Sequence record: PZ019085.1
Strand: one strand, 5' to 3'
From: a phage
Length of the DNA: 64,000 bases
Position numbers and translations under genes: made by a program. Below the pieces are notes generated by a model. It worked only from the letters and a program-made list of their open reading frames with translations. It ran no database searches and had not been told where the DNA came from. The stretch's first letter is position 1; every line of letters begins with the position of its first letter. Shown one piece after another: positions 24,110-32,205 of the stretch.

Positions 24110-24184
24110 GGCCCTGTAGCTCAATGGGAGAGCTGTCAGCTCATAACTGATAGGTAGCTGGATCGAAACCAGCCAGGGTCACCA
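24110..24184 (+). tRNA. tRNA with CAU anticodon (Met or Ile2)
   Basis: hand-folded cloverleaf: acceptor GGCCCTG/CAGGGTC, D-arm GCTC-AATGGGA-GAGC, anticodon stem GTCAG/CTGAT with loop CTCATAA, T-arm GCTGG-ATCGAAA-CCAGC, encoded CCA. Confidence 0.75.
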
Positions 24185-24187
24185 ATC

Positions 24188-24264
<77 letters not shown>

Positions 24265-27870: not shown

Positions 27871-28234
27871 GCCCTGGGCATACGAATACAAACGTAAATT
27901 AATCCCAAACGAAGTACTATTTGGCCCTATTTTAGCTTTAGCATTTTTAATCTTTATGATTATAGGAGCTATTTTAGATTCCAATAAAGTTATATCGTCT
28001 GATGCAGCGTTTTCATTAATGTTCGTCGCACCACTTATTGTACCATTTTTATTAATGCCTATTAACTGGGTGGGATATTGGTACCAAGGCCGTCATCACA
28101 GAGCCCGATTAAGAGAATGGAAAGTTCAGTGCGCAAAAGCCCAAGCTCAGTATGATGAAGCTGTTAAAAAGTATGAATATGAAGAAGCTATGGAATTCGT
28201 TAAGGAAATAAGATGCAAAAGCCTCAGCTCTTAA
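27839..28234 (+). CDS. membrane protein, C-terminal EFVKEIRCK motif family
   Basis: 131 aa; two predicted TM helices; C-terminus EAMEFVKEIRCKSLSS related to the C-termini of ORFs 28213, 30721 and 31714; alternative start 27860. Confidence 0.55.
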   Translation: MSKPTLYMPIKPWAYEYKRKLIPNEVLFGPILALAFLIFMIIGAILDSNKVISSDAAFSLMFVAPLIVPFLLMPINWVGYWYQGRHHRARLREWKVQCAKAQAQYDEAVKKYEYEEAMEFVKEIRCKSLSS

Positions 28235-28572
28235 CCGTACGGCCTTCTCTTGGTGAGAACATTCTAATTTTTATTATGAGTATTGGCATGGGATTTGCCT
28301 TTGGATTAGTTGGATTTCTTATTGACGGCGTTGTGTTAGGATTTATAGGGAACACTGGTGGATTCACAGACCAATGGCAGGACTTACGGTATACCCAAGC
28401 CTTTGCATCCATCGCATCATTTTGTACTGTAGTCTATTTTTACTACGATTTTATAAACCATAACAAGAAAAATAAAAAGGTTTACGCTTCTCAAATGGTT
28501 AGTTATAATGAACTTCTAGCTAAACGTGAAAATGAAACAATCGAAAACTTTATTAAGGAATGTAGAAAATGA
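28213..28572 (+). CDS. membrane protein, C-terminal ENFIKECRK motif family
   Basis: 119 aa; TM helices FIMSIGMGFAFGLVGFLIDGVVLGFIG; C-terminus ...NETIENFIKECRK. Confidence 0.6.
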   Translation: MQKPQLLTVRPSLGENILIFIMSIGMGFAFGLVGFLIDGVVLGFIGNTGGFTDQWQDLRYTQAFASIASFCTVVYFYYDFINHNKKNKKVYASQMVSYNELLAKRENETIENFIKECRK

Positions 28573-28874
28573 GTAAGATTATTGAAATTAAAGTACCAGA
28601 GTTTAATGATGCCAAATCCGCTTCAGATGCAATTTATAAACTTCTGAATCAAGCTGAACGTATCGAAGAAGAAGCAACAAAGATCGCAGACCAATATGCC
28701 GTATCATTTTCTGTAGGTGATTATGGTAGCGGTCGTACTTATTATCCTAAGGGTGAAATCGTATCCCAGTGGATGAAAAATGAAATTGAAAATAATGGTG
28801 GCGATGTTAAGCGTGAAGGTAATGGTTACGTTATTACTGAAGGTGCTTGGGTTTCGTCTTCTGCGTTGTGCTAA
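28569..28874 (+). CDS. small protein, GWVSSSxxC paralog 1
   Basis: 101 aa ending ...EGAWVSSSALC; shares GDYGSGRTYYPKGE-like motif and C-terminus with the next two ORFs. Confidence 0.6.
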   Translation: MSKIIEIKVPEFNDAKSASDAIYKLLNQAERIEEEATKIADQYAVSFSVGDYGSGRTYYPKGEIVSQWMKNEIENNGGDVKREGNGYVITEGAWVSSSALC

Positions 28875-28883
28875 GGAATCATT

Positions 28884-29156
28884 ATGTCTAAAGAACAAAC
28901 CGAACTGGCCGAAGCTGTAGCAAAAATCTATGCAGCTATTGAGGCTGCCAAAGAAATTGCTGATAAACAAAACACAACATTCGATTTGTATCCAGCTTAT
29001 GGTATGGGTGGAACCTATCATTCACCCGGACAGCTTAAAGCCGATCTTGAACGTTGTACAAAAAACGGCTATGCTGAATGGGCCGACGTTTACCAATACG
29101 ACTACAACCTGAGCCTTGAAGATGGCGGTTGGGTTGCATCTTCTCACACTTGCTAA
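28884..29156 (+). CDS. small protein, GWVSSSxxC paralog 2
   Basis: 90 aa ending ...DGGWVASSHTC; internal YGMGGTYHSPGQ. Confidence 0.6.
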   Translation: MSKEQTELAEAVAKIYAAIEAAKEIADKQNTTFDLYPAYGMGGTYHSPGQLKADLERCTKNGYAEWADVYQYDYNLSLEDGGWVASSHTC

Positions 29157-29165
29157 GGAAACAAT

Positions 29166-29363
29166 ATGTCTCGTGAATTAGATTGTGCTGTACGTACCGC
29201 AGTAGCTGCCCTGGAAAACCTGTTCCAAATTGCAACAGAAGAACGCGAAGAAGTTACATTGTGGATTGAAGATAACGCAGGTCTGAATCTCCAGAACGCG
29301 ATCTCATTATCCAACAATAGTATCACTGTTCAAGGCTGGGTATCATCTAGTTATTCTTGCTAA
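29166..29363 (+). CDS. small protein, GWVSSSxxC paralog 3
   Basis: 65 aa ending ...VQGWVSSSYSC. Confidence 0.55.
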   Translation: MSRELDCAVRTAVAALENLFQIATEEREEVTLWIEDNAGLNLQNAISLSNNSITVQGWVSSSYSC

Positions 29364-29367
29364 AACA

Positions 29368-29406
29368 GTTTACAACAAGATAGGGCTATGTTATAGTAGT
29401 CCTATC
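29368..29406 (+). promoter_or_regulatory. early promoter with inverted repeat (PeSL-like cassette)
   Basis: GTTTACAACAAGATAGGGCTATGTTATAGTAGTCCTATC; about 90% identical to the copy at 22607. Confidence 0.55.
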
Positions 29407-29425
29407 AAATTAAACGGAGTCCACA

Positions 29426-29665
29426 ATGATTTATTACGAAAGTATTGGAACCGAAGTGGTTGCTAAAACCATTACTCGTGAAAAGTTTGCAAAGATATTC
29501 GATATGCGTTATAAAAAATCTGAACACAAAGGCATCCGATTTGAAGATGCACACTGCACAATTTGCCCTTATAATGAAGACATAAACGGTACAATCGTTC
29601 CATTGGTAGAGGCTTCACATGATGACCTCTGGGATGAATATGATATCGCATGTCGTGAAATTTAA
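29426..29665 (+). CDS. hypothetical protein
   Basis: 79-aa ORF; Cys/His pair ...HCTICPYNED... Confidence 0.55.
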   Translation: MIYYESIGTEVVAKTITREKFAKIFDMRYKKSEHKGIRFEDAHCTICPYNEDINGTIVPLVEASHDDLWDEYDIACREI

Positions 29666-29693: not shown

Positions 29694-30650
29694 ATGATGT
29701 TAGTTATTGGTTCTCGTGCACTTCACTATCATGGTCTTATTGATTCTAGCGCTATCAAAAATAGCGATTGGGACTTTATTGCGGACCAAGGTTCTTGGAA
29801 TGCATTCAAAAATCAAATGATGGGTGTATATGTTCACCAAGATAACCCTGATGTCCAAGTTTTCAAATGCTTCCATAATGGACGCGAAACTCATTTTGAA
29901 GCATATATTGTTCCGGCAATCACTAATGTCCGTGAATTAGTCGGTGAACTCACTCCTGAAGATTTCACGTCTTCTTATGACCTTTTAAAATACGCCAAGA
30001 AAAATTTGACTAAAGATCGTTTGACCGGGTTTTACTGGGCAACTCCTGAGATATGTCTTGCAATTAAAATGTCTCATCGTTTCAAGAAAAATAATCCATT
30101 CTTTTTAAAGACTATGAACCATATTCAGTATCTTCGTGGTAAAGGTGTTACACTGAACGATGAACTTACTGAAATTATGCTGAAACGCCAGAAAGAAACC
30201 TTGAATTATGCTCACCCAGTTCTTGACACTTCTAAAAGTGCGTTCTTTAAAGATGACATCTATACATATGACCATGATACTATTCATGAAGCCATTGCAC
30301 TAACAGACCGCCCAGCGTATACATTTTATATGAAAGATGGTTCTGAAGTCATGACCTCACGCGAGAAGTTCGAATCATTACCGGAAATGGTCAAATTGGC
30401 CGGTGTATACGAAGAATCATGTGTACTAGCGTTAGAACGTTCTCAGATTCCTAATGACTTTAAAATTAACCCTGAAGCCAGTTTTATGATGGCATTGGAA
30501 AAAGTCTGTACAAGCATCACCTCTGGTTGGTTCCGTGAATACGCCTGGGAAAACTACAGCAAAGTAGTAAGTATGTACCAAAGCTTAGGACATGATGATT
30601 ACGTTAAACGTTTCAAACAAAATTTCCATATGGTAAAACCTTTCAAATAA
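29694..30650 (+). CDS. putative nucleotidyltransferase-fold protein
   Basis: 318 aa; N-terminal hhhGS...x14...SDWDF (MMLVIGSRALHYHG...NSDWDFIA) resembles the Pol-beta superfamily GS / DxD active-site pattern; remainder helical. Confidence 0.5.
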   Translation: MMLVIGSRALHYHGLIDSSAIKNSDWDFIADQGSWNAFKNQMMGVYVHQDNPDVQVFKCFHNGRETHFEAYIVPAITNVRELVGELTPEDFTSSYDLLKYAKKNLTKDRLTGFYWATPEICLAIKMSHRFKKNNPFFLKTMNHIQYLRGKGVTLNDELTEIMLKRQKETLNYAHPVLDTSKSAFFKDDIYTYDHDTIHEAIALTDRPAYTFYMKDGSEVMTSREKFESLPEMVKLAGVYEESCVLALERSQIPNDFKINPEASFMMALEKVCTSITSGWFREYAWENYSKVVSMYQSLGHDDYVKRFKQNFHMVKPFK

Positions 30651-30662
30651 TTTCGCAAAACT

Positions 30663-30700
30663 GTTTACACAATTATAGGACTATGTTATAGTAGTCCTAT
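30663..30700 (+). promoter_or_regulatory. early promoter with inverted repeat (PeSL-like cassette)
   Basis: GTTTACACAATTATAGGACTATGTTATAGTAGTCCTAT. Confidence 0.55.
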
Positions 30701-30720
30701 TAAAACATGAGGAGAATATT

Positions 30721-31026
30721 ATGAAATTAACAGAAACCAATCTAATCGGTCTTTTAACAATATTTGCATCACCTTTTTACGCAGCCCTTTCTGTTGCAGT
30801 ATTACAAAAGGCTTACGATATGGATGGTGTTCCTGGTTTTGTATTCTTATCACCATTTTTATTATTCGTCGGAGCATTGTTATTATATGCCACGACTAGT
30901 TTCGACCATAACGTCTGGGTCAATTATAAATGCAAATTGTCTGAAGAAGAACACGCAGAAGCTCGTAAAAAAGCTATTGAATCTACCAATCTAGAAAATT
31001 TCATTAAAGAATGTCGAGGAAAATAA
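30721..31026 (+). CDS. membrane protein, C-terminal ENFIKECRGK motif family
   Basis: 101 aa; two TM helices; C-terminus ...ESTNLENFIKECRGK. Confidence 0.6.
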   Translation: MKLTETNLIGLLTIFASPFYAALSVAVLQKAYDMDGVPGFVFLSPFLLFVGALLLYATTSFDHNVWVNYKCKLSEEEHAEARKKAIESTNLENFIKECRGK

Positions 31027-31027
31027 T

Positions 31028-31714
31028 ATGAATAGTTCTAAAGTGTTTAATAGCCAAGCTCGTGCAGTAGGTGGTTTTGCTGGTAAAATTTCTAATGATA
31101 AAATCAAAAACGAAACTATGTTCTTCAACAGCTCATTGGCTTTCGCTTTTGATAATGGTGGCCCAATTACTCGTAGCTTCATCATGAACTTGCCGGATGA
31201 TTGGAACACTGACCAGGTTGTATTTGATTCACGAGTCCACATGCTGATGCCTGGTTGGTATCCTGCTATTCCTGGATATCACCATGATGACGTACCACGT
31301 CCTGATATTCCAGTTGGTCAACACTTTATTACTGCAGGACAACCTGATTATGACAATCCTCGTTACCATTCTGAACATATTCTTGGTCTTGTTAACGCTG
31401 ATGTGTGTCCTACTCATTTTGCAACAGGAACTGCAGAGTTCAGTCAGATTCCTGATGGCGAACTTATCTATCGTCAGTGGCACAAAGAAGTCCTCGAAAA
31501 AATTGAAAAAGGTGAACTAGAGAAATGGGAAGCTCCAGATCGTACTCTTCTTCAGTTTGATTGGCAAACATGGCACACTGGTTCTCGTGCAATTAGTAAT
31601 GGATGGCGTTGGTTCGGACGTGTATCTCGTAATACAGACCGAGTTAAAAAGATTACCAATGAAATTCGTGTCAATGCCCAAGTTTATCTGGAATTCCCTA
31701 TGGAAGGCTGGTAA
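31028..31714 (+). CDS. hypothetical protein with His/Asp-rich motifs
   Basis: 228 aa; GWYPAIPGYHHDD and CPTHFATG motifs, Trp-rich C-terminus; no family recognised. Confidence 0.6.
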   Translation: MNSSKVFNSQARAVGGFAGKISNDKIKNETMFFNSSLAFAFDNGGPITRSFIMNLPDDWNTDQVVFDSRVHMLMPGWYPAIPGYHHDDVPRPDIPVGQHFITAGQPDYDNPRYHSEHILGLVNADVCPTHFATGTAEFSQIPDGELIYRQWHKEVLEKIEKGELEKWEAPDRTLLQFDWQTWHTGSRAISNGWRWFGRVSRNTDRVKKITNEIRVNAQVYLEFPMEGW

Positions 31715-32205
31715 TGATTAACAAAACATATTGGTCTAATATAGACGATGACAATGAAGGTATTTCATACTATTCAGTAGATTGGACAGGATGTCCATCC
31801 TACTTAGTGAAAAATATTTGCCAAGAATTTAAAATCGACCAGCCAGCAGGTATTATCGTGAACAGATACATTAATGGATATCAACCTATCGATGAAGTAA
31901 TACGAACAACTCAAGCTGAGCTTGAAAAGTTTTTCAATAAGTGCCAATGGATAACAGGATGGATTATATTTGTACCGTCTATATGGTTTTTCAGCACTAA
32001 GGTGAGTTCTTTCGGTTTTGTTGATATTATTGCTATCTTATTAGCATCTAGTATCATAAGTGTTGTTGGTGGCATCATTGGTGGCGGTACTGCAGCCATC
32101 ATTATTAATCTTGTTAAAAGTAGTTTACAGGAACGTAAAGACAAGATAAAGGCCAAGAATAATGAAGTTGAACGTTTTATTACCGAATGCAGGAATTTGA
32201 GATGA
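31714..32205 (+). CDS. membrane protein, C-terminal ERFITECR motif family
   Basis: 163 aa; TM segments WIIFVPSIWFF and IIAILLASSIISVVGGIIGGGTAAIII; C-terminus ...NNEVERFITECRNLR. Confidence 0.6.
   Translation: MINKTYWSNIDDDNEGISYYSVDWTGCPSYLVKNICQEFKIDQPAGIIVNRYINGYQPIDEVIRTTQAELEKFFNKCQWITGWIIFVPSIWFFSTKVSSFGFVDIIAILLASSIISVVGGIIGGGTAAIIINLVKSSLQERKDKIKAKNNEVERFITECRNLR

Follow-up and report, generated by a model that had tools for sequence, protein, structure and literature searches.

Cys-tailed small proteins encoded upstream of a predicted MenT-like nucleotidyltransferase point to a conserved two-part phage module

Pol-beta nucleotidyltransferases (NTases) in general move NMP onto hydroxyl acceptors. 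In HepT-MntA, a type VII toxin-antitoxin system, and in GlnD/GlnE, an NTase-fold enzyme covalently attaches a nucleotide to one particular hydroxyl residue of a protein dedicated to it as substrate, the acceptor being a Tyr within a loop of a larger protein. ANT(2'')/AadB and LnuA are compact resistance enzymes of ~160-180 aa that have no protein partner. MenT-fold NTases extend tRNA 3' ends with nucleotides. Small proteins whose genes lie immediately upstream control them, and phosphate transfer to an active-site Ser/Thr is possible (PMC10435456, PMC11375011). One of these small proteins, MenA1 (7.4 kDa), spans two MenT1 protomers and induces auto-phosphorylation of the active-site Thr (PMC10435456, PMC11375011). 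Phages also encode an RNA-ligase-associated Pol-beta NTase, RlaP (PMC7824862, PMC12776372).

The locus compared here with these systems lies in the window, by which we mean the whole stretch of 64,000 nucleotides of phage DNA analyzed (record PZ019085.1). By megablast, this window is 97-98% identical to Mosigvirus (RB69/HX01/JS09-like T4-type phages). The relevant features are the following:

28481-28509, + strand: promoter-like site within the e.3 homolog, upstream of A (TTTACG-17-TATAAT, 10/12 matches; consensus match only)
28569-28874, + strand: small protein A, 101 aa, pI 4.7; RB69ORF139c; 'GDYGSGRTYYP' type; phrog_899, E=1.8e-22
28848-28871, + strand: tail of A, W94-V-S-S-S-A-L-C101, with the stop codon immediately after; W, SS and C are invariant columns of the family alignment
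28884-29156, + strand: small protein B, 90 aa, pI 4.6; RB69ORF137c; 'AYGMGGTYY' type; phrog_899, E=1.4e-18
29130-29153, + strand: tail of B, W-V-A-S-S-H-T-C, then stop
29166-29363, + strand: small protein C, 65 aa, pI 4.1; RB69ORF136c; 'MSRELDCAVRTA' type, without the Gly/Tyr motif; phrog_4882, E=1.7e-36
29337-29360, + strand: tail of C, W-V-S-S-S-Y-S-C, then stop
29368-29410, + strand: early-promoter-like box (GTTTACA; TTTACA-17-TATAGT) and strong hairpin (-16.8 kcal/mol, z = -3.96), between C and orf79
29426-29665, + strand: orf79, 79 aa; facultative third gene of the module, outside the tail family
29694-30650, + strand: partner protein with DUF7277 and DUF7275, 318 aa; modeled as a nucleotidyltransferase of the Pol-beta fold, with a resemblance to MenT/AbiEii toxins and ANT enzymes
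30663-30705, + strand: second promoter-plus-hairpin copy, near-identical to that at 29368-29410; ends the orf79-NTase unit

The preliminary description had reported three adjacent, same-strand ORFs of 101, 90 and 65 aa at 28569-29363, and both the coordinates and the tails proved exact. The ORFs lie in one frame, with 9-nt spacers carrying GGAA Shine-Dalgarno-like sequences; their products are all acidic (pI 4.1-4.7), and the translations end in ...EGAWVSSSALC (A), ...DGGWVASSHTC (B) and ...VQGWVSSSYSC (C). A six-frame scan of the whole 64-kb window found the pattern W-x-x-[ST]-[ST]-x-x-C-stop in A, B and C only. The Gly/Tyr-rich internal motif said to be common to A and B is indeed present in both (GDYGSGRTYYPKGE in A, YGMGGTYHSPGQ in B). 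The likeness of the three is genuine and the ORFs are paralogs: pairwise blastp, each with a one-sequence search space, gave E=2e-7 across 73 residues for A-B, E=1e-3 for A-C and E=3e-4 for B-C. The PHROG models assign A and B to phrog_899 and C to phrog_4882. The proposal of a tandem set of paralogs that share a conserved C-terminal tail and have Cys as their last residue is borne out. Against Pfam, NCBIfam and PADLOC, none of the three gave a significant match. Peptidase_S78_2 and E217_Gp32 were rejected as identities for A, the matches being weak, sub-threshold and absent from other members.

The A-B-C site is found between e.3 and e.2 homologs, in a plastic region that has the tRNA genes on one side and the lysozyme gene on the other. 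In T4, e.3 directly abuts e.2, so A-B-C and the subsequent genes constitute an insertion relative to T4, which has no counterpart at this locus; this agrees with the earlier remark that no T4 function could be recognized in the three ORFs. In the annotated relative SA79RD, A, B and C correspond to RB69ORF139c, ORF137c and ORF136c (the ORF137c match was confirmed separately), and in the public annotations examined they are hypothetical proteins. The SA79RD annotation gives a T4 middle-promoter-like site at the counterpart of 28481-28509 and a terminator for the 29368-29410 element. The latter divides the A-B-C unit from the orf79-NTase unit and, being a hairpin plus a promoter, implies that co-transcription of the two halves is not required. 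The second half, the NTase gene, is context that was absent from the preliminary description and from which the tail probably takes its meaning.

The three paralogs had been called diversifying, a view that the substitution pattern overturns. Versus three close relatives, pN/pS was 0.12 for A, 0.12 for B and 0.08 for C, against 0.09 for the neighboring NTase; A, B and C are thus under ordinary purifying selection, resembling neighboring genes. Each type has its own orthologs, at ~50-65% identity, across several phage genera, the holders being T4-like enterobacterial phages (Dhakavirus-like; Klebsiella, Enterobacter and Edwardsiella phages), which implies that the duplication is ancient. Types A, B and C are ancient subfamilies kept by purifying selection. 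Type B alone gave tblastn matches in 282 phage records.

The family to which they belong is large. A profile search of a 5.8-billion-protein collection returned 60 homologs. When 1.84 billion cluster representatives were searched exhaustively with HMMER, 740 clusters (50% identity clusters) matched at E<=1e-3, 132 of them at E<=1e-10. Among the 150 of the 740 matches listed, most proteins had 70-120 aa and the match nearly always reached the last residue. No Pfam model covers this Cys-tailed superfamily, and the two PHROG entries, phrog_899 and phrog_4882, are function-less and split it. Comparison of the family profile with PDB sequences returned coiled-coil noise only. Membership of C is indicated by hhalign against the family profile (probability 95.6%, E=1.2e-8, with a profile that includes one C sequence). 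A further type, E, which is not in the window, is weakly related via helix and strand in profile-profile comparison, and types A, B, D and E have in common a helix plus a short strand of the pattern hydrophobic-A-D/N-x-x-G-hydrophobic-x-F. In contrast, orf79 is not a degenerate member, its hhalign probability versus the tail family being 0.5%.

Homologs from other phages had been proposed as the test that could refute the shared C-terminus, and the tail is kept in them. The exact W-x-x-S-S-x-x-C-COOH end was present in 182 of the 197 sampled members, from very diverse phages, with W, S-S and the terminal C invariant in those 182. Cys was the last residue in 186 of the 197, a few members carrying one extra residue after it, and in 112 of the 197 the terminal Cys was the sole Cys of the protein. 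Some paralog types have shortened variants such as W-x-x-S-S-C, and type E carries the motif twice, as an internal DW-x-x-SSC-YGE and a terminal W-x-x-SSC. Since tails occur on proteins of 41-159 aa, a portable tag on unrelated bodies was considered; it was rejected, as clustering puts almost all tail-bearing ORFs in 1-2 BLAST clusters. The safer statement is that they form a single fast-evolving superfamily, of which the tail is the most conserved part.

At the DNA level, 139 distinct tail sequences were compared. All six Ser codons (TCN and AGY) are in use at the invariant Ser positions, so the constraint acts on amino acids and not on a DNA repeat; both TGC and TGT encode the Cys, and any of the three stop codons may follow. 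These data bear on the idea that the likeness reflects a DNA-level repeat (a recombination or regulatory element over the ribosome-binding site of the next gene) or a chance likeness of spurious ORFs. TGC-TAA-GGAA at the ends of A and B does overlap the Shine-Dalgarno of the next gene, and an SD-like sequence comes after 82 of the 139 distinct tails. However, the codons of both residues are interchangeable and the stop codons vary, C and many other members have no following gene, pN/pS is ~0.1, and the family has 740 clusters. We consider this idea excluded by codon usage and pN/pS, with a negligible probability left to it.

The predicted structure of A gives a second view of the tail. AF2, run with a 36-sequence alignment, models A as a compact fold (mean pLDDT 91.5) with a helix at residues 15-43 (29 residues) followed by a small beta-sheet. 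The tail is part of the model: W94 is in the last strand and residues 97-100 form a short helix (pLDDT ~90). As AF2 builds the tail into the fold, the conservation of W and SS might be structural and not that of a docking tag.

The compact model also bears on whether these proteins could be RiPP-like precursors, with an N-terminal leader and a C-terminal S-S-x-x-C-COOH that is turned into a thioether or aminovinyl-cysteine ring. The appeal of this idea lies in pattern only: an invariant Ser-Ser and a C-terminal Cys at fixed spacing, tandem precursor-like paralogs and a conserved adjacent enzyme. A Ser at -3 from a C-terminal Cys is moreover the spacing used in epidermin-type AviCys formation. 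But A is predicted to be compact (pLDDT 91.5) and not a disordered leader plus core, and shortened tails such as W-x-x-S-S-C alter the Ser-Cys spacing. Nor is there a conserved gene nearby for a dehydratase, a cyclase, an HFCD/LanD flavoprotein, a YcaO protein or a radical-SAM enzyme, the conserved neighbors being the NTase and orf79 only, neither of which has a RiPP-relevant Pfam match. A RiPP-like origin is thus very unlikely.

The protein encoded downstream was assigned by its domains and its model. DUF7277 and DUF7275 are both above the gathering threshold (97.1 and 265.1 bits, versus a cut-off of 27). In an alignment of 33 sequences, G6-S7, D25-x-D27 and E69 are invariant, and these GS, DxD and E residues constitute a Pol-beta-type nucleotidyltransferase signature. 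The C-terminal domain (DUF7275) is large and helical, and numerous His, Asp, Glu, Cys and Arg positions in it do not vary. The best fold matches of the partner were as follows:

MenT1 toxin: 10.0
ANT(2''): 8.7
TglT/MenT3: 8.5
TM1012: 7.6
MenT4: 7.6
LnuA: 7.1

The protein therefore models as a Pol-beta NTase, predicted to be nearest to the MenT1, TglT and MenT4 toxins and to ANT(2''). The enzyme looks active, with an intact catalytic motif. Both the Pol-beta NTase fold and the G[GS]...DxD motif, by which a MenAT/AbiE toxin is recognized, are present. At the sequence level, searches against named Pfam, NCBIfam and PADLOC families and PDB sequences gave no match, and in the 33 members only DUF7277 and DUF7275 matched at E<=1, so that membership in DUF1814/AbiEii is absent.

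Several of the systems described above can be set against this enzyme. Compared with ANT(2'')/AadB and LnuA, it has an additional, large and conserved helical domain, DUF7275. With RlaP it has in common that it is a phage-encoded Pol-beta NTase (PMC7824862, PMC12776372), and in the jumbo-phage contig L003 Rnl1 and PNKP genes lie no more than a few kb from the module. However, the module of the window is not beside an RNA ligase, the accessible text on RlaP describes no Cys-tailed partners (PMC7824862, PMC12776372), and an identity with RlaP was rejected, since none of the 33 members scanned matched PF10127. The likeness to MenA1-MenT1 (MenAT/AbiE DUF1814) is closer in layout, as both have the gene of a small protein immediately ahead of that of a bi-lobed Pol-beta NTase (PMC10435456, PMC11375011), and A, in its AF2 model, has a long N-terminal helix like that of MenA1. 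In contrast to MenAT/AbiE, the NTase of the window has no sequence match to Pfam NTase families or PADLOC models, and the module is carried by virulent phages and not by bacterial chromosomes, with 1-6 partner paralogs instead of one. The small partners themselves have no sequence or fold similarity to MenA1 (PDB 8AN5), their predicted fold being different and without a match in the PDB.

The association of the two halves was then assessed from both sides. In the window, 330 bp separate the end of C (29363) from the start of the NTase gene downstream (29694). Among the viral loci found via the small-protein motif and having enough downstream sequence, 31 of 31 have a same-strand DUF7277/DUF7275 gene 0.06-1.3 kb downstream, preceded by 1-4 tail-bearing genes per locus. 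Starting from the NTase, 74 of 80 viral loci have 1-6 tail-bearing ORFs. In these 80 loci, 224 of the 1,206 same-strand upstream ORFs bear the tail, compared with 2 of the 937 downstream and none on the opposite strand (Fisher test for upstream enrichment, p = 4e-57). All-against-all clustering of the ORFs showed that the small family, present in 72 of 80 loci, is the sole gene cluster that tracks the NTase across lineages. Relatives of orf79, second to it as a companion, are found in 34 of 80 loci, where they lie after the small genes and before the NTase; other flanking genes vary. The identity of A orthologs also correlates with that of NTase orthologs (Spearman rho = 0.66, p = 6e-5). The same arrangement recurs far from the T4-like phages: a 371-kb jumbo-phage contig has two tandem family members and, two genes on, a close NTase homolog, and a very distant member on an 87-kb contig keeps the small gene-NTase order. 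In one clade (L078, L079 and L106) the NTase motif seems intact although no gene there bears the tail, so the enzyme does not strictly require the small proteins.

The NTase gene is present in 734 phage records. Its carriers are T4-like phages of many hosts, phAPEC8-like phages, Pseudomonas, Stenotrophomonas, Acinetobacter and Aeromonas phages and jumbo phages, with Streptomyces and Gordonia phages as more distant carriers. On the bacterial side, 185,579 species genomes yielded just 5 loci, each in a metagenome bin, and 4 of the 5 have tail-bearing ORFs upstream. The module is essentially phage-restricted, and the data point to the small genes and the downstream NTase being a conserved two-part phage module.

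Linkage of this kind could also arise if A, B and C were independent small effectors that act on host targets alone (anti-defense, host takeover or nucleic-acid mimics), their adjacency to the NTase being that of one mobile cassette. The tail would then be an intrinsic motif, for instance one in which the Cys thiolate and the carboxylate bind a metal, or in which tails pair. Several properties are consistent with this: the proteins are acidic (pI 4.1-4.7), small and encoded in the early region, as is typical of host-directed phage effectors; the tail of A is modeled inside the fold by AF2; the double motif of type E hints at two motifs acting together and at a free carboxylate that is not always needed; and hairpin-plus-promoter cassettes flank the units. 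Against it, the linkage persists, with constant order and orientation, in T4-likes, in jumbo phages of 350-370 kb and in Saccharibacteria-binned contigs. As these lineages have no other common neighbors, simple co-inheritance does not explain the linkage, and we regard independent effectors as rather unlikely.

Our main reading, to which we assign a probability of about 0.5, is that A, B and C serve the MenT-like NTase as dedicated partners and that the enzyme engages them through the tail. In its favor are the linkage seen from both sides, the lack of any other gene that tracks the NTase across lineages, the co-divergence of A and NTase orthologs, the conservation of the tail, the active-looking enzyme and the precedent of the MenT-fold NTases. 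We infer a physical interaction between the small proteins and the NTase, with the tail as the contact; the chemistry and the choice between a substrate and a regulator role belong to the same inferred part. In such a mechanism, the small, acidic proteins, predicted to fold as alpha/beta, would offer their tail to the active-site cleft of the NTase, where the Trp may act as an anchor. The hydroxyls of the invariant Ser-Ser (or the terminal Cys) could then serve as acceptor or pseudo-substrate for nucleotidyl or phosphoryl transfer, and as an outcome either the small proteins would be modified or the enzyme would be gated. That NTases use hydroxyl acceptors and that only the Trp, two Ser and the terminal Cys are invariant favors tail recognition. 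The chemistry proposed for the Ser-Ser tail would, by analogy, be similar to that of HepT-MntA and GlnD/GlnE, although the acceptor there is a Tyr in a loop and the families are unrelated.

Some observations count against this reading. A simple inhibitor would not usually come as 1-6 paralogs in one phage. The closest analogue, MenA1, can do without its C-terminus (PMC10435456), whereas the extreme C-terminus is the invariant element of the phage partners. Counting specifically against the tail model are the placement of the tail within the AF2 fold, the hairpin-plus-promoter between the two units and the clade that has the NTase only.

The same comparison with MenA1 leads to an alternative in which the small proteins are MenA1-like regulators. 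Here, the long N-terminal helix would bind the NTase and produce an antitoxin-like shut-off, by blocking the active site or by inducing auto-phosphorylation, and the tail would not be the contact but would have another role, such as fold stability, oligomerization or metal binding. The layout, a ~7-11 kDa protein whose gene directly precedes that of a MenT-fold NTase, is that of MenA1-MenT1 (PMC10435456). In its AF2 model A has an N-terminal helix of 29 residues, the helix plus short strand pattern is common to types A, B, D and E, and the N-terminal helix of MenA1 is by itself sufficient for activity (PMC11375011). Nevertheless, the family alignment shows a poorly conserved helix and an invariant tail, the opposite of what is expected of a helix interface, and a one-to-one antitoxin needs no multiple paralogs per phage. 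We therefore consider such regulators rather unlikely.

Taken further, the reading of A, B and C as dedicated partners of the NTase would make the module a hitherto unrecognized system of post-translational modification in phages. The NTase would nucleotidylylate or phosphorylate the Ser-Ser or the terminal Cys of a W-x-x-S-S-x-x-C tag carried by 1-6 effectors, thereby switching them on or off during infection. We advance this specific form only tentatively. The closest known kind of system is the pair of a small partner and a MenT-like NTase, and there is a real chance of a tag-directed protein-modification system.

Literature searches found no paper on these ORFs, on DUF7275/DUF7277, on the tail or on the linkage, and a search for phage NTases with a C-terminal cysteine gave nothing relevant. 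PHROGs (899, 4882) and Pfam (DUF7275, DUF7277) list the components separately, with no function assigned, and neither the tail nor its link to the NTase appears in any of the sources searched.

The small family and the NTase are widespread, and both are completely uncharacterized. Seen as one module, they offer a testable hypothesis for several hundred genes now annotated "hypothetical protein", for which the invariant eight-residue C-terminal tail is a very specific handle. If true, tag-directed protein modification would be a logic not described for any NTase family. To our knowledge, MenT-type NTases are known only as bacterial tRNA-blocking toxins. A phage relative with small partners could be a device for host shutoff or counter-defense, could mirror a toxin-antitoxin system on the phage side, or could be a new protein-modification system. 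Each of these options would be of interest for the biology of phage-host conflict, and possibly as a tagging tool.

The tail shared by the three tandem small paralogs (C-terminal W-x-x-S-S-x-x-C followed by the stop codon) is altered in two individual homologs. ORF139c, the counterpart of the first paralog in the RB69 reference (P0002), is annotated at 71 aa and ends in ...SQWYEK, without the tail, and the ortholog of the second paralog in phage mar005P1 (P0046) is 75 aa long and differs at its end. Both cases probably reflect a frameshift, an error in sequencing, or a natural loss of the tail in single isolates. Another paralog of about 74 aa, the E-type, was found at locus L040 (3893-4117), with equivalents in L039-L073, and is absent from the window. 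It carries the motif twice, as an internal invariant D-W-x-x-S-S-C-Y-G-E and as a terminal W-x-x-S-S-C, and looks like a fused double unit.

The gene for the DUF7277 and DUF7275 protein (NTase), which together with the small genes forms the module, is also present in a clade of viral contigs devoid of tail-bearing genes (L078, L079, L082, and L106), where an ORF of 177 to 178 aa takes their place upstream of the NTase. The NTase of L082 is broken into pieces of 55 and 209 aa, suggesting that it is a pseudogene. Several public annotations of relatives look wrong: the NTase homolog of Klebsiella phage VAC36 is labelled "prohead assembly scaffold protein," the HX01 RefSeq record gives "tail completion protein | major capsid protein" under this region of the genome, and the e.4 homolog of phages JK45 and JK42 is labelled "sulfurtransferase." Moreover, JK45 is classed in Tequatrovirus, yet it is 98% identical to the window, which is from a Mosigvirus.

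The plastic region between the tRNA and lysozyme genes also encodes three predicted membrane proteins with a common C-terminal motif of their own:

28213-28572, e.3 homolog, ending in ...ENFIKECRK
30721-31026, unnamed ORF, ending in ...ENFIKECRGK
31714-32205, e.2-like ORF, ending in ...ERFITECRNLR

ORFs with ends like these occur at locus L058.

In the window, genes for tRNA-Met and tRNA-Arg (24110-24264) lie about 4 kb from the module. The module of a 371-kb jumbo-phage contig (L003, 1-5500) is in an RNA-repair and counter-defence neighbourhood, with an Rnl1 RNA ligase, a PNKP-like kinase-phosphatase, and a Gad2-like gene a few kilobases away. The window also holds three near-identical elements, each made of GTTTACA, which resembles the -35 box of early promoters, followed by the hairpin ATAGGRCTATGTTATAGTAGTCCTAT:

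22620, first copy
29368-29410, second copy
30663-30705, third copy

The last two bracket the unit formed by orf79 (29426-29665, +) and the NTase gene (29694-30650, +). These elements resemble the promoter-early stem-loop cassettes that have been put forward as mediators of module shuffling in T4-type phages.
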